From assembly GCA_030141605.1 (NCBI GenBank), contig JAQGDQ010000357.1, forward strand, positions 178,686 through 242,685: a stretch of 64,000 bases of DNA, read 5' to 3'. The first letter of the stretch is position 1, and every line of letters begins with the position of its first letter. The position numbers and the translations under genes were made by a program. The DNA comes from Tubiluchus corallicola (Eukaryota > Animalia > Priapulida). Of this stretch, positions 11,443 to 41,700 are shown in pieces. The notes below the pieces were generated by a model. The model was not told the DNA's origin. It did not search any database and worked only from the letters and a program-made list of their open reading frames with translations.

Positions 11443-12509
11443 TATTTGCATTGCATCACAAGGTTAAACGATACCTGTTAATTTTGTGTAACTCTTCTTG
11501 GGCACTTTCACCTTAACTATGAAAACCTTAACTAACCTCAGAAATTTCACCTTAACTTTGAAAATTTTCTGTTATAAACTTTGCTTTACCTTCATACTTG
11601 AATATAGCTTGGTTATTAGACTGACTAACTATATTCCAAATTATATGTTCCATATCTATTATAAAAATGTGTACGAGAAAATTGAAATTAAATTACATCC
11701 TGAAATTGGTCAAGGACTTCTGACCACTCTAGCCATTTTATGAGCAAATTTACTTTTTCTTGTGAAAATGAACATTAATGATCGTGAAGTTGAATTTCGT
11801 AGCCTTGAAGTGTCGCATTCAAATTCACATCACGTTTCTACATGTATTGTCTAACCTTTCTGTCTCTACATTGTTTATATGCGGTGCTTCAAGCAAGTTT
11901 ATAATGTCTATTTCACTTTGCCGTGACCTGAAAACGGAACAGTTTCTGCTGCTTACCAATGTTCATGTACTGTGACTGTTGTCCTAGTCCTAGTTTTATA
12001 GTTTACTTTCAGTCCAAGCATGTGTATTTTTGCCGTGTAAAAGGTGTAGAAAATCATTCAAATGGTTCTTTCCGTTTCATTGATTTTATGTTGAAGGTTT
12101 AATAGAAACGTTCAAGATCTATTTTGCAAGCTGACGTGATATGTGCTTGGCACATACTTGCAGTCATAAATGATGCAATTAAGAAAATTGTATATAAATA
12201 CAAACTTTAATAGTTTTAGGAAAGTGTGAATTGTATTGAGTAGATTTTTTTGTACAGTTTTGCCAGATAATCCACGTGCGACAGTGCTTGTGCAATGTGA
12301 AATTCACAACTTTGTATACATATCATATTGTGGATATTTACATTGAAATTTGTTTTTGGCTTTTATAAGATGACAACAACTGATTTACATTAGTTATTTA
12401 GCTATCTTCCTGTGATTGCTCCTGTTTCTGACTGCAGATGTACGTCTTACAAAACAGGGATTGCTGTTTCAAAGTATTTGTCTCATCATTTTAGCTCAAA
12501 TGACTGACC

Positions 12510-12945
12510 ATGGGTTGTGTGAACTCTAAGGGCGAAGTGGACATTGGTTTACGTACGTTCAATGTGTTTAATGTTAATGACAGCGGCGAGCCGCTGACGC
12601 CTGGAAAGATAGAGATCACAGAGACAGATCTGATATTCTATCCAAACAATCGGGACCCCCTCCGTTGGCCAATGAAATGTCTTCGGCGTTACGGATTTGA
12701 TGACGAACAAGAGGTGTTTTCTTTCGAAAGTGGTAGACGGTAAGTGAAGCATTTTGTCATATAATCACACAGACTTATTATCCAGATGTCGCTCGAGTGA
12801 AGAATTATCTTCTATCCTTCCAAACGTTATCACTGTACATTTCTGACAGTTAGTACATTTCTGATGGGTGGTAATATTTTTGACGGGACCACATACGTCA
12901 ACACAACTATACCAGGAAAATTAGATAACCCACTTTATATAAAGA

Positions 12946-12989
<44 letters not shown>

Positions 12990-15175
12990 GATTAGATTCG
13001 CATTTTAACAATTAAATGTTGTCTTGTAAATTAACAACAGAGTAAAAGTGTTTCACCTCACATTTCAACTGCAGCGACTTGGCTGCCATTTCAGCGTAGT
13101 AGACTGTACACAACATTATGACCAATAGGATAACAATAAACAATATTGTGACCAATAGGATTACAATACAAAACATTATGACCAATAGGATGACAGTACA
13201 CACAGTTTCTACTAGAAAGCACATTTTTATGTTATACAATTAACTAGTAAAATGCTTTGAGCTGCAGTACTATTGTTTAGAAGAACTGTGCGATAGAAGT
13301 GTTGTATCACAGTTACACTGCAAAATTAAGTCATAAATTTTAGCCAATCACAAATGTTTCCTAATGTGGTCAAACTGTGTATTACATATTTACTCTAAGG
13401 CAAAGCCAATAAAACTTGGCATCAGTAGTGCTATTAGGTATTCTCACTCGATCTTGAAATTGACTAATGAAAGTTGATAGGGTCTTATATTAGGTAGGGT
13501 TTTTTCAGTCAGAACATTATATTTCAAGGCTGCTGAATCAGCCAAATTACAATTAGTCGTGGGTGGTACTGGCAGAAGAAAGAGCCATTATGGGATCTTT
13601 GACTTTGAAATGCTTGAATTTCACTTCAAGGTCTATAGAGTTATAATATGATATACATGTCCAGAAAGTTTTGGTCATGCTACTAAACACTTAAAGGGTT
13701 GTTATGGGAAATTATCTTACAAACCTAAGCACTTTCAAATAAGGTTACCCATGCCCTAATTCAGATTAATTAACATCAGCTCAGAAAATTTTGCTTTTAC
13801 TGGTTTTTGAAAGTGAACTCTTATATATTCGAGAACCGGATCAACATTTTACCAGTGCAGTTTACGAATGCTGTGCAATACATTTCAATGGCAAGCTCCT
13901 TTTTGTGGTCAATATTGATAACATGATGCAGATGAATGACGAATCACTACATTTTTTTCTTTTCTGTACAGGTGTTTAACAGGAGCAGGTGTTTTTGCAT
14001 TCCAATGCAATCGAGCAGAGGAATTATTCAACATTCTTCAAGAGTGCATCCAAAATGCAGGTCCTGCTCAACAGGAAACCATGGAAACCAATCTGGCTTC
14101 TCGTAGCACCCCAAATAGCAGACCAGCTTCAATATCTGAGAATCCATCTACTGCTGTGCCTGCACTGCCTCAATACCAGCCAAATGGTGGACTGACGACC
14201 GGTACTGTCGTACAGACTGTGAGTAACATGCCAGTTCCGAGTCCGCAACAAGTTGTGCGTGGCATTCACATTGCACCGCAGAACAGAGACGATGCTGTGT
14301 TGCCACCGCTGCCTCAGGATATTGACGTGGGACATGCGGTGGCTTTGGCAAATTATGTTAATGAAGAGGTATTTTCCTCGAACAGTCCGAATAGTCCCAC
14401 GAGTCCGACTCAAATTCATAATTACGTTAACACACCTGCTGGACCGCAAAGTGACACAGAAAGGCTTCGAAATAGCAGTGATGCTTTGAGTGATGTTGCA
14501 CGTCCCGACAGCGTCGTCAGCGTGAGTAGCCACACCAGCAGTTTTGCACAGCAAAGAGAGAAGAAAAGCTCACTTAGTAGTTATACACAGCAACAAATGG
14601 TTATGAACAACAGCAGATCCTCATCAACTGTGGTACAGTCTGCTCAGACCTCTCAAGAATCTGTCATACAGCGTGCTAGGGAACAGTTTGAAATGTTGGA
14701 TAGGGCTGCTGTTGACGACGTGTTCCTTTTTGAGCAGCGCGAGGATGCGCAGCACATGTACATGAACGTGACGCCTGATGTGTTTCCAAACGGTTTCCAC
14801 CAATCCGACACTGAACGTTGTTATGCCAATGTGCCGTTGGGTAATAAAAATGGTGTCGGCTTAGCAGACTTATCGCCAACATTGCCTTTGTTAGGTGTAC
14901 CACCTCAGGACCACCAAGTTAACTACATTGTACTAGATTTAAGTAAGAATGGCCAAGGATCATCAGAACAACCAACTTGCTCCACAGCCCCAGTTTTGGG
15001 GTCTTTTTCTGAACCTAATTCACCTAACGCGAGAGGTTCTGCTGGAGAAGGGTATACCGTGATTGATTTTGATAGGACAGTCGCATTGTCGAAATCTGCT
15101 AATCCCCGTCTCCACGACGACGATGGCTCGTCAAGAAAAACACGCCATAACAGTACAATTACAAGTCCATTTTAA
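12510..15175 (+). CDS. FRS2: Fibroblast growth factor receptor substrate 2/3-like adaptor; coding exons 12510-12739 and 13972-15175 (477 aa)
   Basis: N-terminal myristoylation motif MGCVNS; IRS-type PTB domain (WPMKCLRRYG..FSFESGRR|CLTGAGVFAFQCNRAEELFNILQECI) joined across a phase-2 GT-AG intron; YVN/YVN/YMN/YAN sites; NYIVLDL and YTVIDF sites; C-terminal DDGSSRKTRHNS recognised as the FRS2/3 tail. Confidence 0.93.
12949..12989. repeat. (ATT)n microsatellite
   Basis: Direct reading. Confidence 0.9.
13111..13200. repeat. Three 30-bp tandem units (core 'tgaccaataggat')
   Basis: caacattatgaccaataggataacaataaa / caatattgtgaccaataggattacaataca / aaacattatgaccaataggatgacagtaca. Confidence 0.85.
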
Positions 15176-17783
15176 AAATGGCATAGTGTGTGTTTATACA
15201 AGTTGTATATACTTGAATGGAAAACGAATATAATAAATGTTGTTTGTAGAAATGTAAGTGACTTGTTATCAATGGCACATTTAGTAGTTCAGAATTGCTG
15301 AGCTTGGATGATAATTACTTAATGACAGTATCTAACCTTCACACTTCTTAATGTGGTTTCAAATCTGTGTGACATGTACAGATGAACCACTTTCAGATGG
15401 AGAACTATAACAAAGGCATTATGTTAACGTAGAATGTGTTGTCTGGTAGCACACTATTACTTTAAGATGGTATTTAAAATTTCCATACTAGATAAGACCA
15501 CTTGGTGTTTTTCATTTGCACCTAAGCTATGGTTTTTTACTATGAATGGTAATGTAGCAATGAATGGGCACTTAATTTCGGTTTCAAAACAGTTTATGAC
15601 TGCGGCTGTATTCTAGGTCCACTGCTTAATTTTTCTTTGAGAAATGTGCACTTGTGATGTTTTGGTATAAATGTTTTGAGTAGAAAAGGCAGATTGGTAT
15701 ATAATTTTCAGTTTCGTAATAATTAGTTAACTCATATTTCTATCTCGTATTTGTAAAGAGTAGATGCATAAGTGATATGCCACCATGTGTGTGTGTGTAT
15801 AGTTCACCAAGTGCAACAAGTTCATGTTAGAGAGACGAGTGGTGACTGATTTTGCCAGAAATAGATCTGCTGATCAGCGATCGTTTGACAATGACAACTC
15901 GACAGTCTAAATTTGACATACAGCATACTTTAAACTGAATCATGAACACATCGTATTGTTCATGTTCATTTTATCAGAAAAATTTCGTCATTTTAACAGA
16001 AAATGTTCAATTTCAATCTAGATATATACTGATACAGATATATACTTCTGTATTTCTTCAGCAACTCCTGTAGGTGATATTGATAGCACCAGTCACACAA
16101 ATACGATTTTTTATGTCCTTCTGCGGTTTGAAACGGAAACTGTCATCTTCAATTTTGTTTGCTTTTAAATTCAAATGTAAATTTATATTTGAGTAACTAC
16201 ATCAGAGTTGTATTACCTAATTTGTGAGGCAACTTTGGCACGTTATTTGAACAATAAGTTCTAAGCAAGTGGCATACCGAGTACGTGTAAAAGAAGCAAG
16301 TACTGAGATTCTGTTCCAGGTATTGTGTCCAGTTTATCTAGTCAAATGTAATGCCAAAATATGGAAATGTCTTTTGCAATTATGAAGTGTAAAAATATTT
16401 TATAGAATGTCAGATTATTTGAAAAAGTTAAATGAAAGAGAATCTTAAATGCTTTTTTGTTTAAGCAGTTAGACGACTTGCACAATTCTGGTCTCTTTTA
16501 ACTTCAGTACAATAATGAGTTTCTTTTTTAAGAATTAAAACAGTGTTTAATTTAATACAGTGCACTACTGATACCTGTATTGTCCATGCGCAATTTAGCC
16601 AAAGATTTTAATTGTGATTTTATTAAACATTATTTTTACGCCTTTTCAAGCAGGTAGTTTACATACCATTTAATCAATACATAGAGTATAGTTATTTTAT
16701 GAGAGTATAATAATTATTTTATGAAAACATTGCAGTTATATGTTGTAGCTGAATGTACATATATTGGGTAGATTTTATCATTATTTTGTTTTTTAAAGTA
16801 AAAGATCTCTTATTGTTTTTATGCTGGCAATGTAGTTATTAGGAAAAAGGTTTACTGACGTGTGTTCTCAACTGTTTTTATACTTTTATTTAAAAGCGAT
16901 GCTCTCATGAATAGATATTTGGGCAGTGTAATCAGTTGGCTCAACTGTTTTTGGGCATGTGTGTGCTTTTCAGAGTTATTAAAACTTAAAATTGTGGTGT
17001 CAAGTTGAAACGATTATAACTTTCACAACAAGATGTGTTTATTATTTCCGAATTGTTGGCAGTACCAAAGTTGTATAGTGATATGTAATCATGCCATTTT
17101 AATAGGATTTTATGGGATTTTAATAGGATTTGCATGAAAAATGTTTCATTACTTACTTATTTTTATTTGTGTTAACTTTGATGCTTCACATCAATGCAAG
17201 AAACCCATGTTGGCGACAACTTCTTCGAACCCCAGGTGAGAAGAAAGCAGTATTACTGCAGCAGACTTCTGCCCTTCATAAAGTATTTTTAAAACAGATT
17301 AATTTAGTGTTTGTTTCAGATGAATAATTATGTATATTGATCATTTGTGTTGATATACACAGCACAAAAAATAAGCTACAAGGTAAAACTAGCAGTTTTA
17401 ACTGATATTTATAGTTCACATAACCAAATTTGTCAATATTAATAAAGACTTGATGCTAAGAAAAATAAGGACAGATAGAGTGAGTCTAATCTTAATTAAT
17501 GAGTTTCTACAAACTCGTGAGCTGTACAAAATGTTCCTGCAAATTAATTATTCATCTGGCCTGTGAGAAATTTTGTTGTTTTTGCAAACGGTTTTTTATT
17601 ATTGTAGATCACACTCAGTTTTACTAGTCTTTTTGTTTTTTAAACTTTTGTTAGGAGCAGAACAATGTAGAATGTAAAATGTTATTGCTACAATTCTGTG
17701 TATAAATTTTGATTGGACATTGTGTGAATTGATGAAAATTTGTGTAGTGAAAATGCTTTGCAAAAAAGATGAGTAATACAATT

Positions 17784-17789
17784 AATAAA
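17784..17789 (+). terminator. Candidate distal polyadenylation signal of the FRS2-like gene
   Basis: AATAAA at the end of a long T/G-rich tract after the stop codon, ~700 bp before the TRIC ATG; other AATAAA (e.g. 17441) also exist. Confidence 0.35.
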
Positions 17790-18350
17790 ATCATTTTATT
17801 TAATATTATTGTCTTAGAGTCTTTGGTGAATGCGCTTAACAGTCATCATCAAAAATAACACATTTTTATGAGTATGAATGCTACATATTATGAATTTGTT
17901 TTTTTTTTCTTTTACATGGTTGAAAAAAGCAGTTTTACAATCTACGCACTTTTTGTAGGTTCATTCTTTTGTATAACTGTATTTGTGAGCAAAATTATGC
18001 AAAAGTATATTAATGAATGAAAAGTTAATTAAGTTCTGATGAAATTGGGCCATTCATAGAAACATACATGGCCATACCATTTTTAGCGACGTATTATTTC
18101 CGTGTGTGGGAATTTTGAAGAAATAAATTGTAGGTTCATAGACCATTGTTCTTAGGCAACTGTTTGTTTTTTGATTATAAAAAACATGAATTTTTCAACC
18201 TGTTTGTTCTCTGATCTGGTTTATAAATTTATAAAAATATTAGAAATTAACGATAATTATTATTCTAATCTTAAATTAGACCCAATTATCTTTATTTTCT
18301 TGTTAGGAGCAACTATTTAGAGCCTCTGCTAAAAATAAATGTTTAGGAGT

Positions 18351-18366
18351 CGACTAGATGGCGCAG
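18351..18366 (+). promoter_or_regulatory. CTCF-like motif between the FRS2-like and TRIC genes
   Basis: CGACTAGATGGCGCAG resembles the CCACTAGATGGCGC-type CTCF core; ~110 bp upstream of the TRIC ATG. Confidence 0.4.
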
Positions 18367-18475
18367 TCATCTGGCAAACGCTTTCGCCCTCTAGGAACGT
18401 TGCTGCTAACTATTTTGTTTCACGTTTGTGATCGTGTTGTTTGTTTAGTTGAGTTTTAATTTTTCAACCATCAAA

Positions 18476-21400
18476 ATGGACCAAGAAATGTTTTTGGAAA
18501 TAGCGAACGAGGTGGAAAAGTTGGAGATGTTTCCGTATTTTGAGATAGCACATTATGTTTTGATGTGCATGTATGTTAGAGAGGATGTACAAGCAGGTAA
18601 CTTACTGTATCAATTAGAATGCTTCCCTTGCTTATTACACGTTCATTGTCGTCGCTTCTGGGTTGGTCTGGTGAAAGTTTGAATATCATGAAGAAACACA
18701 CACTTAAAGTAAATTTTGTCCGCATTCTCCACCAACTGGAAAACCTGGTCTGTGCATGCAAAATTTCTAGGTTCACATTTGCGAGTTACGAAGTATGAGA
18801 CACCGAAACTCAGATTTGGCATTTTTGCACATCTTGGCAAAACCGAAGTCGATGTAGCGCGCGAATAGGAGTATTATTCTGAGCTGGAAAAGAGAAGAAT
18901 GAAGGATAAAGTGTGATTCAAAAAATAATTACGTAGCTATTACCTGCTAAAATGCCTTGCAAGACGATGTGATTAGTGCCCCAAATGTTATTGTTAGTAT
19001 TTTCGAAAGCAAATTAATAAATTATAACATTGTTGAATCCAAACATTCATTTATCGAACTAACTGCAAATATACATAAAATTATGTGTTGTTTGCCTCAG
19101 TTTTTGTTTAGAAACTACTAGTTTAGGAAATCAAGCTGGTTACTAGTGCCGACTATGATCATTTAATTTTAGCATATTAAAAGAGGCTGACTTAATGACC
19201 TTTTGATCGGCTCGCTATCCTCTGTCCGTTTTACATTACTAGCAATTAGGCTGTATTTACCTATATATACTATTCAACTACTGCATCCTTACAGACTGGA
19301 AGTGTTTACTGTACATTTGTAAATTGAAGAAAAAATAAATTTCAATTCAATTCAGCGCTCAGCGCCATGTGGCCAGAGGAGTTATTAAGTTTGAGAGGTA
19401 AATTAAGAAAAATATTGATTACAAAGCAAGAACTGTGTTTTATAAAATGTGTAAATGCTTGTGAAACCTGAATATAAAATACAAAAGACCATTGAATGAA
19501 AATGATTATAATTACTACATTGTATTGACTAGAACATACTTAACTACAATGACATTATCTTCTTCTTCATGACATTAGTGACAATTCATATCTAACCAGA
19601 AATAACATTTGTTAGGATATTAGGGGTTATTTTGCAGTTAGACTCCCAGGGATTAATACATGAATTATGGCAGAATTTAAATTATTTTAAGAAGTTGGAT
19701 TGTTTGCACTCAACGACGATGCCTGCATTATGTGTATCCAGAAATAAGCTAAACTGCAAGTGGTTTGGCAATTATTCACAACGTTCCTGAGCTGTGTTAA
19801 TATTAAAAAAATATATTTTTATACTTTTTATTTCAAATCTGTTCGAAAAATTCATCTGTTTTTAACCACATAATTTTCAGAACCAATTAGACAAATAGCT
19901 GAATAATGAAAATGCTAAAATGACTGCGTGCCAGTGAGGTTTTTGTCTTGGAAGTTTTAATTGCAACGTCTCTCTTGCAAGTCCTTACTGGCTCATAGTT
20001 TGTGTGGTCCTAACCAATCCGTCGATAGATTCTAGTCATTGTTTAACATAAATAATTACATTTGTTAACTCTGGCTTTTTGCTATTATAATCTATTCTTG
20101 AGTTGACGTGAGCTAATTTAATTGATCAAATAAAATAACTTTGAGAATTTCTTCATCAGAGTAGAGTTGCACTGACAGAGGAATTTGAAAAATTAACACA
20201 CAACCAATTGGAAAAAGTAATCAACCAGTTACTGCTGATTAATTCGTTGATTATTTAAAAAAATTTGGTAGACCATTCTGTTGAACCCTACTCTTTGCTT
20301 TAATTTTGTGCAATATGTAAATAAATTGTTAATTCAGTATTGAAACTTGATTTTGAATAGCCGACAGAAACACTGTGTCATTTCTATGTTTTTTCTTTAC
20401 TCCACTTTCGTCATCTGCTTTTATTACAAAAACACGAAAACTACTGGTTTTGTTTGTTGCCATTCTTGATAATGCCTTGTAGCTTAAAAAATTAATGGTG
20501 AAATATAGTAAAACAAAGCACAATGTTACAAGCTTGTGTTTTGGGACACCTTTGTTTTCAGTAGGCACTGTGTGTGTAAATAGAAAGATTTCTAGATTTC
20601 TACTGCCGCCATTGTGCGTAACTCGCCAATAAGTATTACATGAATTTACTATCGTAATTCAAGCTGCAAAAAGGTTCAAAGATATTCATTTGTTTAATTA
20701 TCAGGCTTCTTGGCAGAGTATTTTTGATATTTTTAGACTAGTAGACAGTATTTGCAAAAATTGGTCAATAAACTGATTACTAGAGACATAATCGGTAGAT
20801 TACGGATTACTAGAAAATTGTCTGTTATTTGTAAAAACTTATTAAATCAGTGCACCTTTACATTTGAAAGTACCCTCATTGTGTAATTGTGGGCCTACTT
20901 TTTAATATATTTAAGGTACTGAAACTAGAGTACTTACATGTGTATAAATTATACCACGCATGTAGTTTAATTTATGATTATATACTATTCTTGATCTTGA
21001 ATGTCATTGCTCTTGCTACTGCCACACAAGCTGGGTACATCATGTTTATGTTTTATATTCTGTATTTTATTGAGATGTTTTATTTTGTAACACTTCCTGA
21101 TTGAATTAATGCAGTGAATTTAGTGTAAATTTAAAACTTTTTAATATTTCATTGTTAGACAAATACAAAAAAAGCTGTCATACACAGTTACTTCTCAATT
21201 TTATATCCTGCATTTATAAGCTCAAGCACTTGAAAATTGATTGTGAGTTACATCAGAATTTTTTTATAATTTATTTAATTTCGTATTAAGGAACTTTTAG
21301 CCTAATTGTAATGAACATCTCATCTCTTAGTTTATTGAATTGATAATCCCTCATCCTAAAACAACCAAACACATTTGGTGCTAGCTGCTGCACAGTCCTC

Positions 21401-24400
21401 CCGGGCCAGGAATCAAATAGCTCTATACTGTTCTGTGTTAGAGAGGGAAGCCTCTTCAGCCATGGCTATTTTGAGAATTATGGTTTCCCCGTTGGCATTG
21501 CTCTACTGTACATGTTGTCTTAAGTCATTTATTAGCTTCGCCTGTTGCCAAATCATATCGATTTAGAAAGTGGTTTTTCTAGGTTGTAACTGATAATATT
21601 GATTGAACCAAACAAATACTTACACTTTTATTTTAGGTTGGGTCTACATTTATAGTTGTTCTGTGAAATGTGATAATTTTCTGTTTTTTGTAAGTTATGT
21701 TTCAATTACATCTAAATAGGTTGAGTAACCACAAATTTCGAGACACAACAATCTGTTGTTCTCATTTTATGTGCATATTCCTTGTTATGTTACAAAGTTT
21801 TTTAAACTTGAAGAATCATATTGCCTGGGAGTCACTGGATTCAAGGGCTTGTTATATTTTGTAGTCTGTAATATGAATATTTTTTAATTTATTAGTTTTC
21901 AGTATGAAAGAATAGCTGTAACTCTAAAATTAATTATATCAAATTATATAAACTAAATGTACACATCTGTCAATCTTATTTAGTTTAGTCATATAGAACC
22001 TGGCCAAGCTTTAGTCCAATAATTTAAACCAATAATGTTTAAGGATCCCTATATTTATATATATATATATATGTATGTATACATGTATGTAGGGATACGT
22101 ATATATCCCTTAAACCATCTAGCTGGTGAGAACCCTATCCTTTATTGCTGTTTTATTTGATTGACTTGCAGATTCTATAGTAGCAGCGTAGATATAAATG
22201 TACACGTAGAATACAACGTATTAGTTTTCAAGAACTAAGCAGGTATTGTCTGCCTAATGCATACGGGGTTAATGTTTCTGTACTGAAGTTTATAAATGAC
22301 TTACACACACTCGGTGTAAATCATAAGAACATGATGCTGTTGAAACTGGTGCCTCTTGGCATATTAGGATCAAATTAAATAAACACTTTTCTGTAATATT
22401 TCAACAGTGTTAATGATCGTTTTTTTTCTTGTCTCCAGGCACTGCAGTATTTTCCAGGAAACATCCGTTCGCATGCTGGCTTTCTAGCATGATGATGGTA
22501 TTTGCCGGCGGGATTATGACGAATTTTTTGCTGGGTGAATCTGTGCTCACACCGTTAGCCGATCACGAACGACTTGGGCTAGCAACGATATGCTGGTGAG
22601 GCTGGTTCAATGCTTATTGTTTCTCAAGTTTATATTTATAGAAGTTTAAGAAATCTAGAGATCAAAAATTGGATGCCCGAATATTAAAATTATGGTTTTG
22701 TCTGTTGGAATTTGCCATCAAATTTTCTTATTTATACAAAGGAGATAAATACATATACATTATACATGGTACACAATTATTTTTATAAAGCAAGCTTGCA
22801 AGTATTTTATTTTGCAATTGTGGAGTTGAAACTTTTAAAATTTTATAAAAGTGACTGCCAACCTGAAATATATATAGCTCACATTAGCTATAGCTTTTTG
22901 CAAAAGCCTGAATTTTGCAGTTTTTTAAATCATTGCAGAATGAAAAGTAGCTGTACATTTTAAAACTTTTGACAACTATAAATGTAGTGAGTATTGACAT
23001 TGGACAGTTTCTGTAAGTTATCATGATTCACTTGTATGATGGACTCACAGCTAAATGTTTTTATTACAAGATGAAGACTTGTTTCCCTTGGCCATCGTCA
23101 CTACCTAGAAATCATATAATTTTTCTTCACCTTTTTGAATGATATTCCAGCTAATCAAGACGCATTTATTGCTCATATAATCCCTGTCTGAAAAAACAGA
23201 TTTTATTCCTTTTTGACGATAAGACTCTGTACATCGCAGATGGTAATTACTTGTTTCATTTGTCGTTTTGCCTGCAGCTAGACTAAGGAATGTGAAATTT
23301 GTCGTATAAGGCAGAATTTAAGGAATGGTAAAGTAAAAAAGCTGTAAGCTGTTTTACCAAACTAATGACCAACATGTACATGCTGCAGGTACTGGAATAT
23401 GTGGTGATTAGAGCCACTGTCTAGTTATGGCTGTAGCGGTACTATATTAAATATTAGCCATGGAACTTTCATTTGCAAGATAACTATGTTCGAGAAACGA
23501 TTACTCGTGTGTTTGACTCGTAGTGAAACAAGAATGGGGTTGTTAGAATATATTGGTTTCCGTTAGTCCTGAATTCGTACTGCAGAAAGGATATTCTGAT
23601 AAGGATAAGGACAGCAGTAAGCCGTTAGTCACTTATGTTGAGTATCAACTTTAGTGGTTTGAAATTTTGCATCATGGGTTCATGGCTGAGTGTTTTATGT
23701 GAGTGGCTGTCGTGGGTTCAATACTTGATTTAGGCAATATCATACATAAACTTTTTATGTCCTCTGCTGGTTCAGTGGCTTATACTTAGACTGATTGTCT
23801 TGATAAAGAGCTAGGCTGCAATTACAATTTGTAGGTAGTTAGCTATGTTATGTAGTCAAACTTGTTTTATCTCATATTTTTGCATTTTTTACAAAGTGCA
23901 AAAGGTTATCCTGTCTTGCCTTTCTCAATGTCAGTTTTTATGGAAAGTCCGGCTGGTATGGAGGTGAAGCATATTCCGTATCCGCAGTCTGGGATACTTC
24001 ACCATGATAGTTTGGTCTGAAGCTTTCAAGTAAAGGCAACAAGCATCTAGAGTTACCCAGAATGTATTCTCAGTTTCAAGTGCGATGAGCACAAGCAGTG
24101 GGTTCCTATTCTCATAGCTCTGACTTGGTTTTAATAGCTTACAGACTTTTGTAGTGAGACCTGGGAAGGGGGCTATGATCAAGGTAAATAAACAGTAAAG
24201 CAATGTTCTTGTTGAATTTCACATAGCAGAAAAGGTTTTCAGAGATGCATTGTTGTGGTCAGTTTATTTGGAGTGAACATGTTCGTTGAGTGTAAACGAT
24301 TGTTTCGGCTATCATAGTCATTTTCAATACTATAAATTAAGCCAAAAAAGGAATAATTAGTACATTAATGATACTAAAATACAAAGGCATAAAGTGTCAA

Positions 24401-27400
24401 TACAAATCAACAGATTAGAATTTAAATTGTCAAAATAAACGTGGATGTAACTAGTTGAAATTGCAAAGAAATTCACCTTATGTGAAATTCAAAGTAATGA
24501 CAGCAGTATTTCATTATGTAGACTTAGACTAATTGTTTACCTTGTTATGACCTTTTCTGGATCTCATATAAGGTGAAATTATTTAATTTCTCTGCAATTT
24601 CAACTAGTTACATCCATGTTTATTTTGACAATTTAAATTCTAATCTGTTGACTTGTATTTACATTTTGTGCCTTTGTATTTTAGCATCATCATTGTACCA
24701 ACTATGCCTTTTTTGCTTGTTTTTAATGTGTATCGAAAATGACTGTAATAGCCAAAACAATTGTCCGTGCTCAGTAAACATGTCGATTGGTAGAGGCTGG
24801 CTCTTTCACATGTTTTCATTTGGAATGATTCCTTCAGACCATTTTGGTCTGAGAAGGGCGTGCTTCTTCGCTTCATGCGTAAAATGACCACCAGTTCATA
24901 TGATAATTGATGTATTACTTGTTGCCAAAGATGCAGCTGGAGTGAATGACTCGTCTGAATGAAGCATCTCTTAAGCACTTTACAAATTAATACTTAATGT
25001 GTCAATGCCTAATGTTCATTGACCAGTGCACAAATCACCACATTTCAGATGCTTTGCGGGCTGCCAGTAATTCGGTGGCTTGAATTACAATATGATAATA
25101 GTGCCATATTGGTTCACTTTATTTTATGTAAATCTAATACAGGATGTTGGAAATTGCATGATGAATCTATTTTGTACTGTTAATAAGACAGAGTACAGGA
25201 AGTCACTGAGCTCTTCTAATAGCTTAAAATTTGTTGAAAAAAGTGTTGATGGAGGCTTGCTAACTTTAGTTAAAGTCTTGGTTTAGTAATTAAAGCTGTT
25301 TTGTTGTAAATGCTATTTTAAACTCTGAGAAATTCAGAGTATTGATGTAAATTATTAGTTCTACTAAATTTTGCAGTAAATGATAATATGATTTTTAAGA
25401 TTTATGATTAATATAAGGCTGGTTCAAGAGTTTGTTTTATATTTCTTTTTTTAAAAAACTTGTCTTGCTGTGTTTTCATATCATTTTAAAATTCTATATT
25501 TTGTACGTATGAAATTATGAATTGTAACTCTTCATATATAAAGTTTGAGCATCTTTAAAGCCCATGATTTTTAGCAGTCGTAGTTTAGAATGATAATTTT
25601 TGATGACCACATCTTTTTTCTAGGTTTCTCATTAATTATGCACCGTTTGATTTGGCATATAAATTATGCAAGTTTGCACCGCTTTTCACGGCCCTGCAAT
25701 TAGTGGTGCAGGTCCGCCGAACGAAGAGAATAACCATCGGCATCGACATGGGCCTAGCAAAAACTGATAATAACATTATTGCCATATGTTGTGGTGTAAC
25801 TTTTGGTAGGATATGTTAAAAATTACATTGTACATGTTTTGGCAGCCATTTTGTATTTGCTAGAAAACAGCAAAAGGAAAACTCATTGATTTACTGTTAG
25901 AGCATATCATTAGTACTGTAAAGCAATTTATTAAAGCGATCTGTTAGTTTAACTTAAAAAAGTATTTTTTCACAAATTATTCTTATTAAATTGCATTTAT
26001 GGTTACTACTATAAAGATTTATTAAAAAATGTCAAAAATTGACAAATATTTCTGTTTTCAACAAAGAAAATCGCTGTCAAATTATTGAGGCTCAAGTAGT
26101 ATTTCCTTAAAGAGTGCAGCATAATTAATAGATCTGTCTAAAGTGTCTGTGTATAGATAATTTCATATTTTATTTAGCTGATAATAGTTTACTACATGTT
26201 GCATCATGACAGCAATGGTGGAAATCTTATGATGTCACTTGCTTGCATTCTTTCTGGAAGCTGCTTCTTTGCAGATTTTTCTCAGTTGCACATTCTCCTG
26301 TCTTTTCTTATTAACTATTCTGGTGATTCGTCGGTAACTAAGCCTTACCTGTTTTTCTCAGGTACGTAATCAACTACACCCCGTTCGATTTGTCCTACAA
26401 GCTTCTCAAGCTGTTACCCTTTAAACTAGTCATCTGCTCTATGAAGGAGATTTTCAGGGCTAAAAAGGTTCATATAGGAGTAACCAAAGCTATGAGCGTG
26501 TATCCAGATGCCTACTTAATCATGGTGACGGTCGGGGTAGTCTATTGTGAGTTTTAATGCCCTCTTGCATGTTAGTTACTGCGTCTGGGCAGACTGTTAT
26601 GTGTTTGATGCAAAATTTGCACTGCTGCAATGCTTGTTTTTAAAGTTAAATTAGTCTGCTGGTTTGTTACTTGTTTAAAGTTAGATTGTGCTGCTAGAAT
26701 GCTACCTGTGCATATAAAGCCAAGTTTATGTTTTGCATTTTAGGCTAAAATTGTTCTTTTGAAAATGTTTGATCACAGTGAGTATTTGCTGCTAAAAAGG
26801 TGTGCTATTTTGTTGTTGTTTGAATGGCTTGTAGCTGTGTCTGAAGCTGATGTCTTAGAATAACTGCAATTAAATTGTTTCTGGCTAAAACATTTTTTTG
26901 TTTTCAATTAGGCTTAAGACTAGCTTTTTTATCGAGAAAGGCATACAAATTTACAGGTTAATCCTAACTTAAAATATCGTCCGTGTTTGAAGAGCTTTGT
27001 GTTGTTCTGTTGGAATGTAACGTTTGATGCAAATTTTAATGTTGGCAATAAAACTTGGCATTTCATCTTAATTAGCCATGCCTGAGTGCTTTGTGGTTGA
27101 GCATGTCATTCGTAAGGTGTGTTTTTTGTGTGCGTCTCTCTAGAATTTTGATTTAAACTAAATCAACATGTTATACTTGTTATGCAGTTGATAATTTGGG
27201 ACTGAACTTGCATGCTCTGATTTCATTTTTACATGCTAAATTATATTCTTAGAGTTTGTGTATTTGCAGCTGCTGCATGTTTGATGACGAAATGCAGTGT
27301 TAAAAAGTTACACATTTGTATTTAGTGGTCTGCGTTTATTAACCTGTTAAAACTTTATAGGTTTGAGACTAAATTAAGCTACTTTGCTCACCTGCGTTAC

Positions 27401-28901
27401 TACTGTCCTGCTTGTTATCACCGCATTCTATAAAGACCTTCGTTATTTACACCTGCGTCTTTCAACGAATGCCACCGGCTACTGATGTGGCTTCCTTAAG
27501 TAATCATAATTTAGCAGATTAACATCCGATTCATCCACACAAAGTTATTAGTGATTTGCAGTGGACATTGGTCATTCATGAATGTTAATATTATTTTCCG
27601 TTTTTGCTAAAATATTCATTAATTTAGCATGTGTTATGTTTTTCGAGTTTCTACACAGCTGTGCACGTTTAAGCTTTGCTTATGTCTGTTCTGTACTAAC
27701 TATTGCTATCAATAGAAATATTTTTGAACTAACTTAATTTTAAAACCTAGATCAGCCTTGTGGGCTCGTGGCATCTACATGTTTGTGTTGTTATTAGACT
27801 GATGTATGTTGAATTTCGCTCCTTCAACAAATTTACTTAAAAAGTCAAAATCAGTTATTGATTTCAATTTGTTTTCGTTGACTGAATGGAATTCGCAACA
27901 AAGTAGAATTGTTGAAGGACAAAGCACAAAAACGTACAGTGAGCGTGTTTCATGTGTTCGCAAAAGCTGAAATTGAAGCACAGTGCTATTGTACAACATT
28001 CAGTGTCATATACAAAAACTCGACAAATTGTAAATTTAAAATTCAAATTTCAAGTTTACAGTTGTGTTCTCGCATGAGCTCTCAAACGTGTGCACTATGT
28101 TACAACCGAACACTTCTTAATTGAGAGGTACAGCACCTGTTCTGTGTGCAACTCGTTTCCAAAATGCAGGCGTTAGTGCCCCTCTAACTAACGCATGCAT
28201 GTAAGCGGAATGCATGTAAGAGCAAAGAGCTAATTATGCGAATACGCAATTGCATTTCTCTGGTAATAAGTCTAGAAAAGTAGTATGTTCTCTTTCAATA
28301 TTGTTTGGAGTAGATTGTTTTGAGTTATAGTTTAAGATTAGATCCAATTTTCCTTTAATATCTAGTTGTTTACTTGCACAGTGGCTCACTCTCAGGAATA
28401 CTTGAAATGATTATGTGTGGGTTAAACCATTGAAAGAGAGTCTCGTCACTTCAAATAAACGTGCTGGCAGCAAGTTTCTTACAAACGTCATTTGGAGATC
28501 TCATCTTATCTCTTCACTTGGTTTATTAACCTTCAACCAAGGGCATTTCAGTCCCGCTGTTTGATTTAATTTGAATTGATTGTGTTACTGCGTTACTCCT
28601 GTGCCAATCAATCAACTTGGAAGAAATTTTGTTTTCAAATTAAAAAAAGTTATTAAGGCATTTAGTTTTCGCACTGAAATGCTGCTGATTTGGTTTGTGA
28701 TGTTAGAAAAGTCAGAAGACTTTGGAGTCAGATTTTTGAGTCAGTATCATTAATTGTTTTTGGAAATTAGAATTTTACAAATTCCTGGAATTAAATTTTT
28801 ACGTTTTTTAATTGAAATTAGATTAATTTAGTTAGTTTTTACTAATTTTCATTAACATCTTAACATCGGTACCACCAGTCCTTCAGTTTCACTAGTAAAA
28901 A

Positions 28902-28933
<32 letters not shown>

Positions 28934-31613
28934 CATCATTATCGTCATCATCATCATTATTATTTTAGTTGAATGTTAAATAATTTTTTTCAACATCATA
29001 TTACATGTCAATTTGGTGGACACTGTCTGTGTACCATTTAACCAAGATTAGGTAGTTGCCATTTGTGAAAATCATTGCCTGTTTGTTTTTTGGGTTTCAA
29101 ACAGTGTAACTTATTTTTCTAAACTGTCATACGAAAAACGCAAATGAATTTCATTGCAGTTGTGAAGAACAAGCTATAGAAATTTGCCGGCATTATTTAT
29201 TGGGAAACTTTTGAAGGTTGTAAAAAAACAACCTCCTGTAATACTGCTTCTATTGCATTCCAAAATGGAATTTTTGTTTCTGATTTTACTGCTTTTGTCG
29301 TGCAGCTGGTGCTAAAGTGTTTTTGTTTTTGGTTCAGGGTGTGTGTGTGTGTTTTCTGGGAAAATTTTAATTGGTAAATGGAATCCAAATCAACAGCATA
29401 AGGTGAAAGCTTACCATGTCAAAATGACCTGTCGAACCTGCATCAGTCATCTAAGAATGCCCTATAATGATAAAACCAATACTTACAAATAAGATGTTTG
29501 CTCACTGTGCATTTGATGGCATGTTTTCCTTAAGATATTCATATTTAATTGAATGTGGCATTGAAATTTGTTGCTGTGAGACATTTTATTTTGTTGCGAA
29601 TTCCATGACAATAAGTAAAAAAAATTACAAAGTAAAATAAAGTATGCATCACGGTTATTTCTTTAATATGCGATTCTCTACTTAAATAATTTCATTATTT
29701 TTGATGTTTTTTTAGTGAATCATAATCATTTAAACTCTTACTGAATTAAATTGGCACTTTTCGGAAATTGTCGTAAAAACAAATTTTAGATGTTCTGGGA
29801 ACTCCAGGTTTTTCAATTAGGCTGGTATTTATTGTTTACGTTTTTCTACTGGTGTAATCATAGCATAAATATGCGCATGGCGTCGCACGTGGAATTACTG
29901 TTTCTGTCTCTATTTGTTTGTGCAATGTTTATAGACGTTCTGGCGGTGCCAGAAAGCTGATTGATATTGAAATTGAGTTCCTTTGGTTATTTTGTTAATA
30001 TAGCATGCGGTAGCAACATGATCAGGACGTTTGAGAGGCTCGTCAGGGGCGTGTGGACTCCAGGACAGCATGAAGCGCTTCAGCCCACGTTGTGAGTGAT
30101 ATATCACTGATATTGCTTAGTATATTATTGTAGTTTGATGTATGGTACAGTGCCTAGCATAATTTGAGATGTCTTATACGCTTATTGAATTATTAAATTC
30201 AGATACAGTAGTTTCAATTTTAATTTCTATTTACTTGTCTCATACTGCAAGTTTACATATTACAAAGTTTTAGTAATGGTTAATATTGTAGCTAAAAAAG
30301 TGACAGTGTGGAGAAAGACCCTATGGTCACTGCGTCCACCAGACACTCAAAATACCATTATATTAGTTTTTGTCGGTGGTGTTAATAAGCAGCTTGTTGT
30401 ACAGTATCTCTAAATATTGTTATTAATTAGAATTAGGTAGAATTCTTGTTCAACAGCAACACATTATAATTTATGTAGAATGTATAAGGAAAAAACTAAT
30501 GCGATAACATGTCAATGATACATAGCAGAAGCAACAGTAATTCTAACCTTGATAAAACTCAATAAAAACATTCAAATTACAGAAGATTTTAACTTTTAAA
30601 ACAGGCAAAAATGCATTAAAATTGGCAAAATAGTCAACAGCATTGTTACAGCAGAAGCAGAATATACAAAAAAGTAGTAATAGAAATGACACTGTGTATT
30701 TCTGACTTGAATGTAGATGGTTGCACAGCCAACTGTCTAAACTAACACTTCCGTAACCTGTGTGGCAATGTGATTTGTAGAATAAATCAAGCAATATGAC
30801 GATTGCAGGTGCAATCCACTAACACCAGTAAATTGTCTGTTGGGCAGCATGTATCTTATGTAGGAGAAAATTTTTGCAGAATGTGAACGTGAATGCAGAA
30901 CATTAAGGCATCTTTGGTTTCCAAGAAGCACCATACTGATTTGTTTTGGAAATGGTGTTTTTCGATTTTGTGGCAGAATTATGTTACATTCACTTATGGT
31001 CCAAAATGAGAATAATTATTTTATACTTTTGTTCTGGTTGAAGTTGCTAAAGAATTTTATCTCCTACTCTGCGAATCCAAGTTAAGCTAAAGACTGCACC
31101 AATTTCTCTTTTCACATGTGTTATGGTATTTTGAAAAACACCACTGACACTAACACTGCGTCATTATTATTTTTGTTCTATAAGTTCTGGTATTCATTTC
31201 ATAGCAATTATGGCAGAAACTTTGTCATAATTGGAAAGTTATTCCTTTTGTTAAATGTAATGGACTTGCTGTTAAGATTACCACTTATTTTGTTTCGTTC
31301 TTTAATTTGCAGTGTATCGAAAGCCTGTTTGGTAGCTGCCATACTATTTGTCTTGGAGAAGAAAACAGATTACATAAACGTTCCACACTCAGCTGTGTAT
31401 CTCGGAGTAGTCGTCTTTTTCGTGTATTTCAAGCTTTCGTCGCTGTTACTGGGAATTCACGACCCATTCGTACCGTTTGAGAACCTGTTCTGTGCCATTT
31501 TCCTTGGCGGGATGTTTGATGCTCTGCGAGACGCCATACAGTCTACAAAAGAGAAGGCAGCCAAAGTTGACGCAAAAAACGGCAAGGCGGAGAAGGACAA
31601 AAAGCGAGATTAA
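18476..31613 (+). CDS. TMEM38: Trimeric intracellular cation channel (TRIC/TMEM38); exons 18476-18596, 22439-22595, [25624-25805 OR 26362-26546], 30004-30091, 31313-31613 (282 or 283 aa)
   Basis: MFPYFEIAHY; FSRKHPFACWLSSMMMVFAGG..NFLLGE; W(Y/F)xINYxPFD; MKEIFRAKKV; FERLVRGVWTP..HEALQPTF; SKACL; HDPFVPFEN; C-terminal KKRD di-lysine ER signal. All junctions GT-AG with compatible phases. Confidence 0.95.
25624..25805 (+). CDS. TMEM38: TRIC alternative exon 3a (divergent duplicate, 182 nt)
   Basis: ttttttctag acceptor, GTAGG donor; open frame (W)FLINYAPFDLAYKLCKFAPLFTALQLVVQVRRTKRITIGIDMGLAKTDNNIIAICCGVTF; phase 2 in / phase 1 out, same as 3b. Confidence 0.8.
26362..26546 (+). CDS. TMEM38: TRIC alternative exon 3b (canonical-like, 185 nt)
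   Basis: gtttttctcag acceptor, GTGAGT donor; (W)YVINYTPFDLSYKLLKLLPFKLVICSMKEIFRAKKVHIGVTKAMSVYPDAYLIMVTVGVVY. Confidence 0.92.
28903..28962. repeat. Compound (ATT)n/(ATC)n microsatellite
   Basis: Direct reading. Confidence 0.85.
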
Positions 31614-33849
31614 CGGGACGGGGTGTGGACTAGGTTATGTAACTTTAGCAATAATTTTGAGTTGGTGTTATGAACTAGTGCAAGAGAATCAAAAGGTGTT
31701 CCAGTGGCTGTTCACTGCCTGTATTATTCAATGCTGTACGTGTTTCATAACTTTCGTTCACGCAGGTGAGGGAATGTCTAGTGAACAAAGGAACTGCACC
31801 TGGTGAACATTTGTGAGTTCTAACAGGTTTTGTCAAAGAAAAATCAAAGAACAATGGCATATCATTTATTTTGTAACAATTTACTGAACAGCTGGAGCTG
31901 CTGAGAAATTTTACCGTATTTTGCACAATAATGTCAAACAGAATATAAATCTATGGCTGTCAGGCATTTTTCTGCAGAAGTTTCATAGCAGGCTTATACG
32001 AAATGTAATATTTTTGGTCAAGGGACTCATCTTGATATTTTGTTGTTTTTGATATGACCTTTTCAAAAAGCCCAAGGCTTCATCATTTCGAATCAGGTCG
32101 TCATGAAACTGCAAGTGAACATACTAGAACATATTTCGTATCTAGACGGAGTCAGATTTTTGATCTACCATCTTGGGTTCACTGAGTCCCTCGACCAAAT
32201 GTTCGAGTCGTACTTGTGTGTACAGTAACATGAGAATGGGAAATGCGTGTCAATAAAGACAAAAAGTTTCAAAAAGTGTTACAAGTTAGCGGCTTTCTGG
32301 ATAATGTTGTAAGGATCTATGAATTTGTTAGTCTCTTAAATTCTTTTCAGACTTGAGGGTTTTTGGCTTTCTTGTTCACTTTAAATAAACAATAATTAAT
32401 AAGTTGGTCTATGGCTGCAAGAGTGTGCTACTTTTTGCTTTCAGAAATCTGTTTCTCATTTACCTTGAGTTTGAAGCTTCGAGTATTTACAAGAAACAGA
32501 AGTAAAGAAGAGTTCATGCAGTTGTGTGTTGAAAAATGATAAAAGAGGGATAATTTTGCTGTTGCTTGACTTTCTAGTAGACACACATTAAATTTACGCT
32601 TTATGCAGCAAAGGACTGTTATAAACAAGTTTCAGAAATAGCTTGTTTAACCCTTGCCCATCTTTAGCTCAAATAAGTACTCTATGAACTGTTTTCTCAG
32701 TACTGTATACATCTATATGGTACTCATTTAGTTGACTGTCAGTTTTCTATAATAATATTTCAGTATATTAGTTACTGATGTTGTCAGCTATAACAAGTAT
32801 TGCTAGGTATCTAGATAAAGTCATTTATGTATTAGTCTACTAATAGTATGGTTGTTAATTTATTCTTTGTTAAAAAGGTGAAATTAGCTATTCTGACTTA
32901 GTTAGTTTATTCTTGAGTAGCGATAGAGTATTTAAATTAGCTTAAAGTTTTCTGTAAAATCTGACATTAAGCTCATTCTAGACTATCGCTCATTAATATT
33001 GTGAATGAGTGACACTTAGTTACCATTCGTGTAACATGTATTTCAGAGGCGTGTACAAAAGTGTGGCTACACTATCATGCCAGCGAGCAAACGTCTGCAA
33101 GGAAAAAGTGCAAAGAATCTAGGCGTTTGAGTAGATGTTATCGGGACGTCGTATGACTCGAGTTGAAGCTGTCATTTGCACACGTCTACACCCACTTTGT
33201 TGATGTGCAATAGTTTAGACAGAGCTTTAGGTTCCTGTAGTTATTATAATTGGGAAACTATTAAGCCTCTTAAGATCTAGTAACTTTTCTGTCAGACTGT
33301 CATGTCCGTTGCAAACTTGCAAAAAGTGCAAAGCTGGCAATGTGTTTTTTAAGTATTGTTTTGACTAGTCTTAGTGTACAACTGTGTATTTGTAATTTTT
33401 CTCCTAATGGATTATTTTGTGATATCTTTGTATATACCGTTATTATGACAAACTATTATTAGGCTTAATGTTGTAGAATTATAGGTGCATCTTTTGACAC
33501 ACATTTGCAGTAATAATGCACCATTTCTCATCACTATTATTTGTTATTGCATTTATGTAGTACTGCTAGGTTTTTCAGTTTTTAAATATCTATGCAAATT
33601 GTTGTTTTTTCATTTTGGTGCCATATTATGTCTTTTGTGCACCAGCATTAGTCATTACTGATTCATTACTTGTGATTTTAGTTATGGTGTCAGTAAGTAA
33701 CTGTCTAGTATGAAAAAACAAAGCTCAAGTTTTTTTGGCTTGTCATTTAGCAAATCTGCTGTAGCTTTTTGCAAATTATTTCTATTAATCCAAATTCATG
33801 TACTGAAACTGTCTAGTGCTAAAGGGATAATGTTGTGATGACTATATTT

Positions 33850-38785: not shown

Positions 38786-41700
38786 TTACAACACGGCAAC
38801 ACCTGCATCGCACCTGCCAGAGGGTATAGAAGCCACGGATAGCCATGACTTCGTGTGCGGATCATAACAGTCCACACTATCGACTGTAGTTGGCACGGAG
38901 AAAGTGTTCGCAGCCGTGCGACCGCCGATCACATACAGAAATCCATTGAGAGCAGCAACTGACGCACCTGCTCGTCTTGTACTCATTGGAGGAATGGCTT
39001 CCCAAACATTCTGCACAACAGAAGATAAATACCACATTGAAACCAAAATATTTGTAATGTAAGACATTTACATTCAGTCCCTAGTAGCATGTGTGACAAA
39101 ACAGAAACAAAAGATATTAATTACTCTACAGTTCATGTTGTAGACTATGCTTAATTGGACTCCAGTTCTCTTGTCAAATGTATTAAATCAACAGAACCAT
39201 AACAGTAGGAGGCTCAGAGCATGTATACGCTAATACTGCACCTACATCAATATTTTGAGACATCTAGTAAGCATAATATAGAAAAAACTCCTAGTAGATA
39301 AATATCTGTCAAGCTCTTGTAGCTTTTCCCAAGGCTGCTGCTCTATGAGACTCCTCTCTAACTCTAAAGTGCAACCTTATGCATTCAAAAAGAATGCCAG
39401 TAGCCACATTTGAAGTACCTTTTGCTGTACAGATTCAACACTTGAAAAGCTTCCATAAATAAAGAAAAAACTTTTTTGAGACAAAAATGGTGCCAAAATT
39501 GTGTCCCACATTTCTTTAGATGATTAGGAAACTAAACAAGATGGCCATCGCCCCACGCAAATAATAAACGAAAGCATGACACTGGAAGTATTTACTACAA
39601 AAAGTGTGATAAAATTATTAAAAAATGGTAGAAATGCAGTTTCGCTTCACTGCATATCAAATACCCAGATTGAGAACACACGATGTCACAAATGTGGTAT
39701 CTGCATAAAAGTGAAAAACGATACACAAATCTAGTCCTTAACTATTTCGTAATCCTTATTCTATTTATCCTTTTTTCTGACACAACTAAGATAACTATAA
39801 AATGACTCACCTCTTCAATGTTATAGCTCTCCACTGAGTCTAAAGCACCCTCTGATTCATTCCACCCTCCAACAGCATATATATGTCCCTCTAATGCAGC
39901 TACCCCAACATGGCTCCTCCTCGTTTGCATTGCCATCAATCTCTGCCACTCCGTTGTAACAGGATTGTAGCTATCGGCAGATTTCATCTCTGAACCAAAT
40001 TCATTCACCCCTCCGATTATATAAATGAGACCTGTCAGACAATGCAAATGACTTTTGTAAAACTTTGCTTCAGTGAGAGCAGTTAATAAACTCACTTTGG
40101 GATCGAAGTGTTTTGACCGAATTAACTGACTGAATCCATTAGCTGATGTGTGTTGTATTGGCGGTATAAAAGTACGAGTCATCACTCTTCACCTTAGTAT
40201 ACACTGCAGGCTGTGAGAGCTTAAAATGTTACTTACACTTCTGATTTATTTTTCAACTCTATGCTCTTGGCTGCGTTATGAAATTTACGTTTGTAAGGTC
40301 GCAAAGAAAACTGGCAGATTACTACCGCAGCATCGGTGGCATAACAGCAACAGTTAACTGATTAAATGTTCTGTGAGAAGCAGCAAGGGCTTCAAAAGGA
40401 AACCAATAGGCATGTGATTAATTGTTCAGCCTCCAAAAATTCTCTGGCAACGAGGTTAATTGCAGTGCATGAACAAGTGACAGATTCAAAGCAAAAACGC
40501 CATGCTATAGCATATGTGGAACAAACCTACTTAAGAACAAAACGGCACTTAACGTGATTGTTTCTGCCTAAATTATAATGCACAAAAACCCATAAAGATG
40601 ATATAAAAAAAGTAAAAACTCTTTTATCACCACAAGTGTCTTAGTTTAAATACATGAAGCAAAAATATTGACTCAACAATTACTATTGTTCATAATGTAG
40701 ATATCAATACAGATAATAAGTATCAGACGTTTTTGAGTCTATCTAATAAACGGTGCCCAAGGTAGTATGTGAAAAACAAGAACAGTGAACAGGACATCAT
40801 AATAATGAAAACATGTCTGTTAACAAATACTGGTACATTAGTGCATAAAACTGCAATTTTAAATTTATTGATACGCAAGTTTAAAACTAAACGGCAACAT
40901 TACAAGTTAATACATTAGTCCTTATTTCAAAATTGCACGATAGGATGAGTTACGAAATGTTGAATGTGCAATGAACATTCATATTATCATTTTTTGCTAA
41001 CATATCAGAATTTCACTATGCTTCAGAATTTGTGTGATTTTCTAGTACTTCACAATAAATCTGTGCACTGACTCCTGATTGAAGTCACATGATGATTTTG
41101 TTATGACGTTTTAGTTAATTTTAGTTAAACTTCTTACACATACAAGTACCTTCAAATGCAACTATGCCCATCGCATATCGAGGCGTGCACATTCTCCCGC
41201 AAATTTTCCAGTGATTAATGTCCGGATCGTACACTTCGATCGTGTTTCCGCTCTCCGTGCCCACCCATCCTCCAAAAGCGTAAATGCTATTATTCACGGT
41301 ACAGGCGCCCAAGCCACACCTGCAAGAGTTTAAAGGAAAACAGGATGATTATTCATATCCTGCCCTATTCTGAAGTACAGTAAGTCCTCGCTTAACGATG
41401 CTAATGTGTTCCAGCAAAACACATCGTTAAGTGAAACGATGCTAAACGAAGAAATTATGTAAAAGCATTCAGTTGCACTCCAGAAGTGAAAATCAAAATC
41501 AAAATCCACAGTTCTACATTACCTATTTGATTGATTAAAAAGCAAATTAGTAATTAAGTGTGAAAATTAAAACCTAAAATTCAAACATAAGCCCTTCCTC
41601 CTCTGGTTGCTCTTCTCCATCCATTTTGTTCTCATTTTCTTTCCTATTTTGTTTTTTTTTTCATAAAAAATTTAGAGTTGGTTGCTTAGACTTTTTCCTT

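Follow-up and report, generated by a model that had tools for sequence, protein, structure and literature searches.

TRIC (TMEM38) proteins form homotrimeric channels of the ER/SR, the calcium store, and conduct monovalent cations, K+ among them. The motif KEVXRXXK in the fourth transmembrane segment (TM4) of TRIC channels has been described as lipid-binding and likely voltage-sensing (PMC9899828). In the published description of C. elegans TRIC-B2, Lys130 and Arg134 bind the head group of PIP2, Lys136/137 lies beside the pore kink, and the residue equivalent to position 35 of the exon studied here lines the pore centre (PMC5401562). Mutants of TRIC-A are reported to be constantly open (K129A) or mostly closed (K129Q) (PMC7940156). 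Invertebrate TMEM38 is said, in the relevant part of a 2024 review, to lack the vertebrate A/B diversity in distribution, activation and function (PMC11059273). Homologous mutually exclusive exons, meanwhile, are described in ion channels (PMC5740500, PMC12772994), and TMEM38A and TMEM38B have no occurrence in ten supplements examined of the human atlas of such exons.

Here we analyzed 64,000 nucleotides of the priapulid Tubiluchus corallicola (the window, meaning the whole stretch of DNA), which contain a TRIC gene with two homologous third exons, 3a and 3b, that are probably spliced alternatively.

Results

Organization of the TRIC gene

Two sequencing runs, X1 and X2, matched the window; neither is recorded as RNA, and X2 is RNA by our guess. 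The gene and its parts are as follows.

18476-31613, + strand: TRIC gene, coding span, with two paralogous third exons, 3a and 3b
18476-18596, + strand: exon 1, coding part, from the ATG to a phase-1 donor; an X2 contig lies over 18427-18591
22439-22595, + strand: exon 2, constitutive, 157 nt, ending in phase 2; 61 bits to Pfam TRIC
25624-25805, + strand: exon 3a, divergent copy, 182 nt, AG/GT; joined to exon 4 in X2 and clustering with a Priapulus exon
25806-26361, + strand: intron separating 3a from 3b, 556 nt, with branch-point-like words 24-51 nt 5' of 3b
26362-26546, + strand: exon 3b, canonical copy, 185 nt, AG/GT; K, R and K of the TM4 motif kept
26547-26846, + strand: UGCU-rich stretch 3' of the 3b donor, a candidate splicing enhancer of MBNL/RBFOX type, with UGCAUG at 26566
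30004-30091, + strand: exon 4, constitutive in the T. corallicola gene, 88 nt; spliced on both sides in X2
31313-31613, + strand: exon 5, coding part to the TAA; X2 contig 31424-32078

The preliminary description of this DNA, made from its letters alone, had reported the paralogous exons 3a and 3b, and recomputation reproduced their coordinates, lengths, phases, AG/GT sites and freedom from stops. AG/GT sites are used at every internal boundary of the gene, and the 3' UTR reaches at least 32078 in the X2 contig that starts at 31424. Both third exons have lengths of the form 3n+2, begin in phase 2 within a Trp codon that the splice junction interrupts, and lie in stop-to-stop ORFs of 70 (3a) and 71 (3b) aa. 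The claim that exactly one third exon makes a full channel also held when we translated each combination: exons 1-2-3a-4-5 encode 282 aa and exons 1-2-3b-4-5 encode 283 aa, while including both leads to a stop after 155 aa, 265 nt upstream of the last junction, and omitting both leads to a stop after 95 aa, 78 nt upstream of it. By tblastn, no further TRIC exons were found within the 64-kb window.

Intron 2 carries a MITE-like element (24277-24783) whose 131-nt arms are 91% complementary and whose X1 depth is very high. The neighbouring genes in the window are listed below.

12504-15175, + strand: IRS-type PTB gene, which we take to be FRS2-like
38786-49797, - strand: BTB-kelch gene
51897-61687, + strand: Ldh_2-family dehydrogenase
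58113-59123, - strand: single-ORF rhodopsin-family GPCR, between exons of the Ldh_2-family dehydrogenase on the opposite strand

Homology of exons 3a and 3b

The 3a and 3b peptides align with a local BLOSUM62 score of 99, which none of 10,000 shuffles reached (mean 22, maximum 50). Both match the Pfam TRIC profile PF05197 (cut-off 25.9 bits) over a common stretch, positions 56-113/115, with 38.4 bits for 3a and 71.4 bits for 3b. Exons 2 and 5 also pass the cut-off; exon 4 (28 aa) stays below it at 23 bits, and the Pfam scan gave no PF05197 match for exon 1. Over 45 gap-free codons, the two copies are identical at 20 first, 29 second and 13 third positions, and 12 of the 16 residues that they have in common are written with different codons. 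The two copies have a GC3 of 0.43 (3a) and 0.61 (3b), and the introns a GC content of 0.30-0.33. Judged by the Pfam scores (71 vs 38 bits), 3b is the conservative copy, and it looks to be under selection.

Exon 3a rewrites the basic motif of TM4

Exon positions 28, 32 and 35 correspond to K129, R133 and K136 of C. elegans TRIC-B1 (5EGI; ungapped alignment), to K130, R134 and K137 of 5EIK, and to K122, R126 and K129 of the TRIC-A chain 6IYU, taking the chain numbering to be that of the papers. Exon 3b keeps the KEVxRxxK motif as K121, E122, R125 and K128. The homologous segment of 3a does not fit this pattern but reads VQVRRxxR, with V121, Q122, R125 and R128, and is thus non-canonical. Compared to the canonical exon, the lipid-binding Lys is replaced by Val at position 28, the following Glu by Gln, and the gate Lys by Arg at position 35, and a new Arg appears at position 31.

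To place these changes, we counted residues in 194 relatives, the rows remaining after two out-of-register rows were dropped from 196. Lys occupies position 28 in 176 of the 194 and position 35 likewise in 176 of the 194. Arg at position 31 occurs in three of them, a Priapulus protein, the protein P0137 and a snail protein, which are exactly those having Val or Ala at position 28; among the 176 relatives with Lys28 it occurs in none. This covariation would represent about two independent events, and Arg31 looks like a charge shifted by one helix turn. The snail protein (P0190, Candidula unifasciata) is a TRIC paralogue in which, as in 3a, Val replaces the first Lys of the motif and Arg follows three positions later. 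A separate TRIC paralogue (L064-L080; P0128, P0129, P0133, P0134), making up 13 of the 194 rows, has DQxHVxxH in place of KEVxRxxK and has lost all three basic residues.

The hydropathy profile across exon 3 is similar in the two isoforms. The 3b isoform would be a standard TRIC channel, and the 3a isoform, with its TM4 charges rewired, is predicted to differ in lipid- and voltage-dependent gating; the residue pattern favours a retuned rather than a dead channel.

A spliced contig joins exon 3a to exon 4

X1 contigs cover introns and exons alike and are nearly identical to the window, matching 25757-26080 with two differences and 26136-26416 with none. In X2, which amounts to 13 Mb of contigs differing from the window by ~5-11%, long records fall on exons and on the 3' UTR; the majority of intron bins contain none, and a few records lie in introns or between genes. 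One such record, at ~29744 in the intron 5' of exon 4, may stem from unspliced RNA, or mark a repeat or a conserved element. X2 record 11 (221 nt) runs from 25695-25804 in 3a through the whole of exon 4 into 22 nt of exon 5, with gap-free GT..AG skips of 4198 and 1221 nt. Its 3a>4 joint is flanked by 110 and 89 letters and skips 3b; the short side of its 4>5 joint has 22 letters, and the last 8 letters of a second X2 record belong to exon 4. When likeness was lowered to 80%, 14 X2 records fell on 12400-32200, with the same two joints. Of the six X2 differences in 3a, the three that were listed are all at third positions, two of them silent and one Ile>Met.

The whole evidence for the 3a>4 join is a single contig of one run whose kind is guessed as RNA. 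At 85% as at 80% likeness, X2 records were lacking for both exon 2 and 3b, the run being incomplete at the TRIC gene, and the joins 2>3a, 2>3b and 3b>4 do not appear in the X1 or X2 contigs. Since the constitutive exon 2 is missing as well, the silence of X2 on 3b is uninformative. The preliminary description had named two signs that would tell against a working 3a, namely a lack of reads splicing into or out of it and orthologues broken by stops or frameshifts. We found instead a contig in which 3a is spliced to exon 4, with 3b left out, and an intact 3a-type exon in Priapulus caudatus. Its central claim, mutually exclusive splicing, is thereby supported on the side of 3a; that 3b is also used in transcripts we infer from the signs of selection in its sequence.

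Relationship to Priapulus caudatus and age of the duplication

A HMMER search with 3a returned 16 matches among 1.84 billion representatives, of which XP_014669678.1 of Priapulus caudatus ranked first, at 47%. In this protein, whose model is without exon 2 and most of exon 5, the 3a-type exon is joined to an exon 4 resembling that of T. corallicola, and exons 1 and 4 likewise have their best match in it among 213 fetched proteins. The fetched proteins contained no 3b of Priapulus. Searching longer proteins for words of 3a yielded none from 18 candidates, no 3a-type exon occurred among the 120 listed of 335 exon-5 search matches (of which those with names include arthropods and molluscs), and the profile search (59 matches) contained no additional priapulid record by name.

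Exon-3 trees of 38 and 19 rows, built on an alignment of 61 columns, both united 3a, Priapulus and P0137 (support 99/93 and 99/98); the smaller tree omits 19 rows, other long branches among them, and a long-branch warning persists for it. A clade of 3b and Priapulus was rejected (p-AU 0.006), and a clade of 3a and 3b was not (p-AU 0.085). The end branches measure 0.34 for 3b and 0.91 for 3a. The last residue of exon 3 is Lys in 192 of the 194 relatives, the exceptions being Priapulus and P0137; it is aromatic in these two and in both 3a and 3b. The simplest reading is that the duplication arose within the T. corallicola lineage and predates the split from P. caudatus, an order suggested by these comparisons, and it is probably old.

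How exclusion may work

A premature stop more than roughly 50 nt before the last junction leads to decay of the transcript. The stops of both-exon and neither-exon transcripts (265 and 78 nt upstream of the last junction) lie beyond this distance, and such transcripts would undergo nonsense-mediated decay; frameshift followed by decay is thus likely to enforce the exclusion. Steric blocking, described for donor-to-branch-point distances < 50 nt (PMC5740500), is inapplicable because the intron between 3a and 3b is 556 nt long, with its branch-like words near the 3' end and far from the 3a donor. Among six pairs of intronic regions, none showed docking/selector (Dscam-type) pairing clear of shuffles: in five, the best duplex did not exceed the best of eight shuffles, and in the sixth the values were -26.5 vs -26.2.

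The choice between 3a and 3b would be set by splicing factors, possibly through an MBNL/RBFOX-type enhancer promoting 3b. The 300 nt after 3b contain nine TGCT, compared with a mean of 1.5 and a maximum of 6 in 426 tiles, in a cluster that was spotted by eye before testing, and TGCATG lies 20 nt from the 3b donor. The YGCY count of this stretch is not above that of dinucleotide shuffles (1360 of 2000 reach the observed value). Downstream YGCY sites are reported generally to favour inclusion in mammals (bioRxiv 10.1101/2021.04.20.440659). There is thus a weak hint that 3b may be the regulated exon, with the UGCU/UGCAUG cluster as its regulator.

Alternative explanations

We regard it as likely that this is one TRIC gene whose tandem exons 3a and 3b are spliced one or the other, giving a standard and a rewired channel. 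Both exons could be spliced while the 3a isoform was not a differently gated pore but a subunit that conducts nothing or regulates, damping channels or serving as their scaffold. It would then make sense that 3a, on its long branch, leaves just one of the three conserved basic residues unchanged and also alters the Glu; relatives widely keep Lys at the other two sites (positions 28 and 35, each 176/194). However, Arg31 and Arg35 preserve the charge count, the pattern is common to Priapulus and P0137, and hydropathy across the exon is alike in both isoforms, so that we consider a subunit of this kind unlikely. Quite unlikely, too, is an exon replacement in which 3a is the sole copy in use and 3b a silent relic. 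A spliced join has been seen for 3a only, and the single Priapulus model uses a 3a-type exon as well, just as a replacement would have it; yet 3b is the more conserved copy, by both Pfam score (71 vs 38 bits) and end branch (0.34 vs 0.91), and retains a GTGAGT donor, an open frame and a GC3 of 0.61 although silent sites between the copies have largely changed.

Finally, we considered whether the pair could be an artefact, either because the assembly contains a duplicated haplotype or because a retrocopy fakes the 3a>4 join. The kind of X2 is guessed, and a few of its records do lie in introns and between genes, which leaves some room for this reading. Against it, 3a and 3b are identical at just 16 of 45 residues, most of these written with different codons, the 20 largest of 47 repeat families include no direct repeat linking the flanks of 3a and 3b, the X1 contigs match 25757-26080 and 26136-26416 with two differences and none, and the long X2 records sit on exons and 3' UTR with most intron bins empty. 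We consider an artefact very improbable.

Alternative exons in TRIC genes of other animals

None of 80 metagenome loci carried two copies of exon 3 in a scan with the pattern NYxPFDxxYK, which misses animals having FY there, and the nine genomic loci spanning exons 2-4 have one copy each. Divergent exon-3 types in contigs of other animals were considered as tandem alternatives and rejected, as they are located in separate genes. Exon 4, meanwhile, occurs in tandem at two loci whose source we guess to be an annelid.

L036, 2555-2642 and 2984-3071: tandem TRIC exon-4 copies, 88 nt each, AG/GT
L054, 2418-2505 and 2838-2925: tandem TRIC exon-4 copies, 88 nt each, AG/GT

Spliced contigs carry either type of exon 4: L008 and L009 share 12 of 29 residues in exon 4, and outside it 50 of 61 (exon 3) and 47 of 50 (exon 5). 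Furthermore, Trichobilharzia szidati and T. regenti have annotated pairs of 339-aa TRIC proteins (P0139/P0159 and P0162/P0163) with 19 differing residues, all within 159-184, and the cluster of P0178 and P0220 contains both exon-4 types on near-identical backbones. Like exon 3 of T. corallicola, this swap offers a choice between two homologous versions of an internal exon within a single TRIC gene; it affects not exon 3 but the one that follows it, beyond the TM5 glycine kink, and therefore represents an independent duplication. The exon-4 switch is possibly one old spiralian event. As exons 3 and 4 were duplicated in different animals, alternative TRIC exons appear to have been gained more than once.

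Discussion

The wider interpretation, on which we are evenly divided, is that splicing in priapulids exchanges both the gate of TRIC and its lipid/voltage sensor, with 3a as a long-kept natural gating mutant, and that duplicated exons have given rise to TRIC subtypes in animals more than once (through exon 3 in T. corallicola and through exon 4 in flatworms and others), whereas in vertebrates the gene was duplicated. If so, cells expressing both 3a and 3b could assemble mixed trimers that combine pores of both gating types. The exon-3 pair and the exon-4 swaps together suggest that invertebrate TRIC diversity exists, hidden in splicing. Being identical outside exon 3, the two isoforms also offer a clean natural pair for the roles of the TM4 lysines in PIP2, voltage and gate control.

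The preliminary description knew of no earlier case in a TRIC gene, and we likewise found no paper on mutually exclusive TRIC exons in the literature searched, subscription papers being outside its scope. The mechanism is well known, and apparently new for a TRIC channel. Exon pairs 5a/5b of SCN genes and those of CACNA1C are likewise adjacent and homologous, agree in phase and differ little in length, in a different channel family. Lengths not divisible by three, as in 3a and 3b, are reported for 60% of human mutually exclusive exon clusters (PMC5740500).

Within the TRIC family, the subtypes TRIC-A and TRIC-B (TMEM38A/B) and C. elegans TRIC-B1/B2 (5EGI, 5EIK, 6IYU, 6IZ3) match PF05197 as exons 2-5 do, and 3b can be aligned gap-free with each of the four solved sequences, its TM4 basic residues being kept. 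Both T. corallicola isoforms are without the Lys of the TM5 'KG', unlike the solved TRICs. The parallel to vertebrate TMEM38A/B drawn in the preliminary description proved to be loose only: MKE..R..K is present in the solved chains of both TRIC-A and TRIC-B, whereas 3a rewrites the motif, and the 3a and 3b isoforms are not equivalents of TRIC-A and TRIC-B. The vertebrate and C. elegans subtypes, which retain KEVxRxxK throughout, are encoded by separate genes, in contrast to T. corallicola, in which two forms come from one gene.
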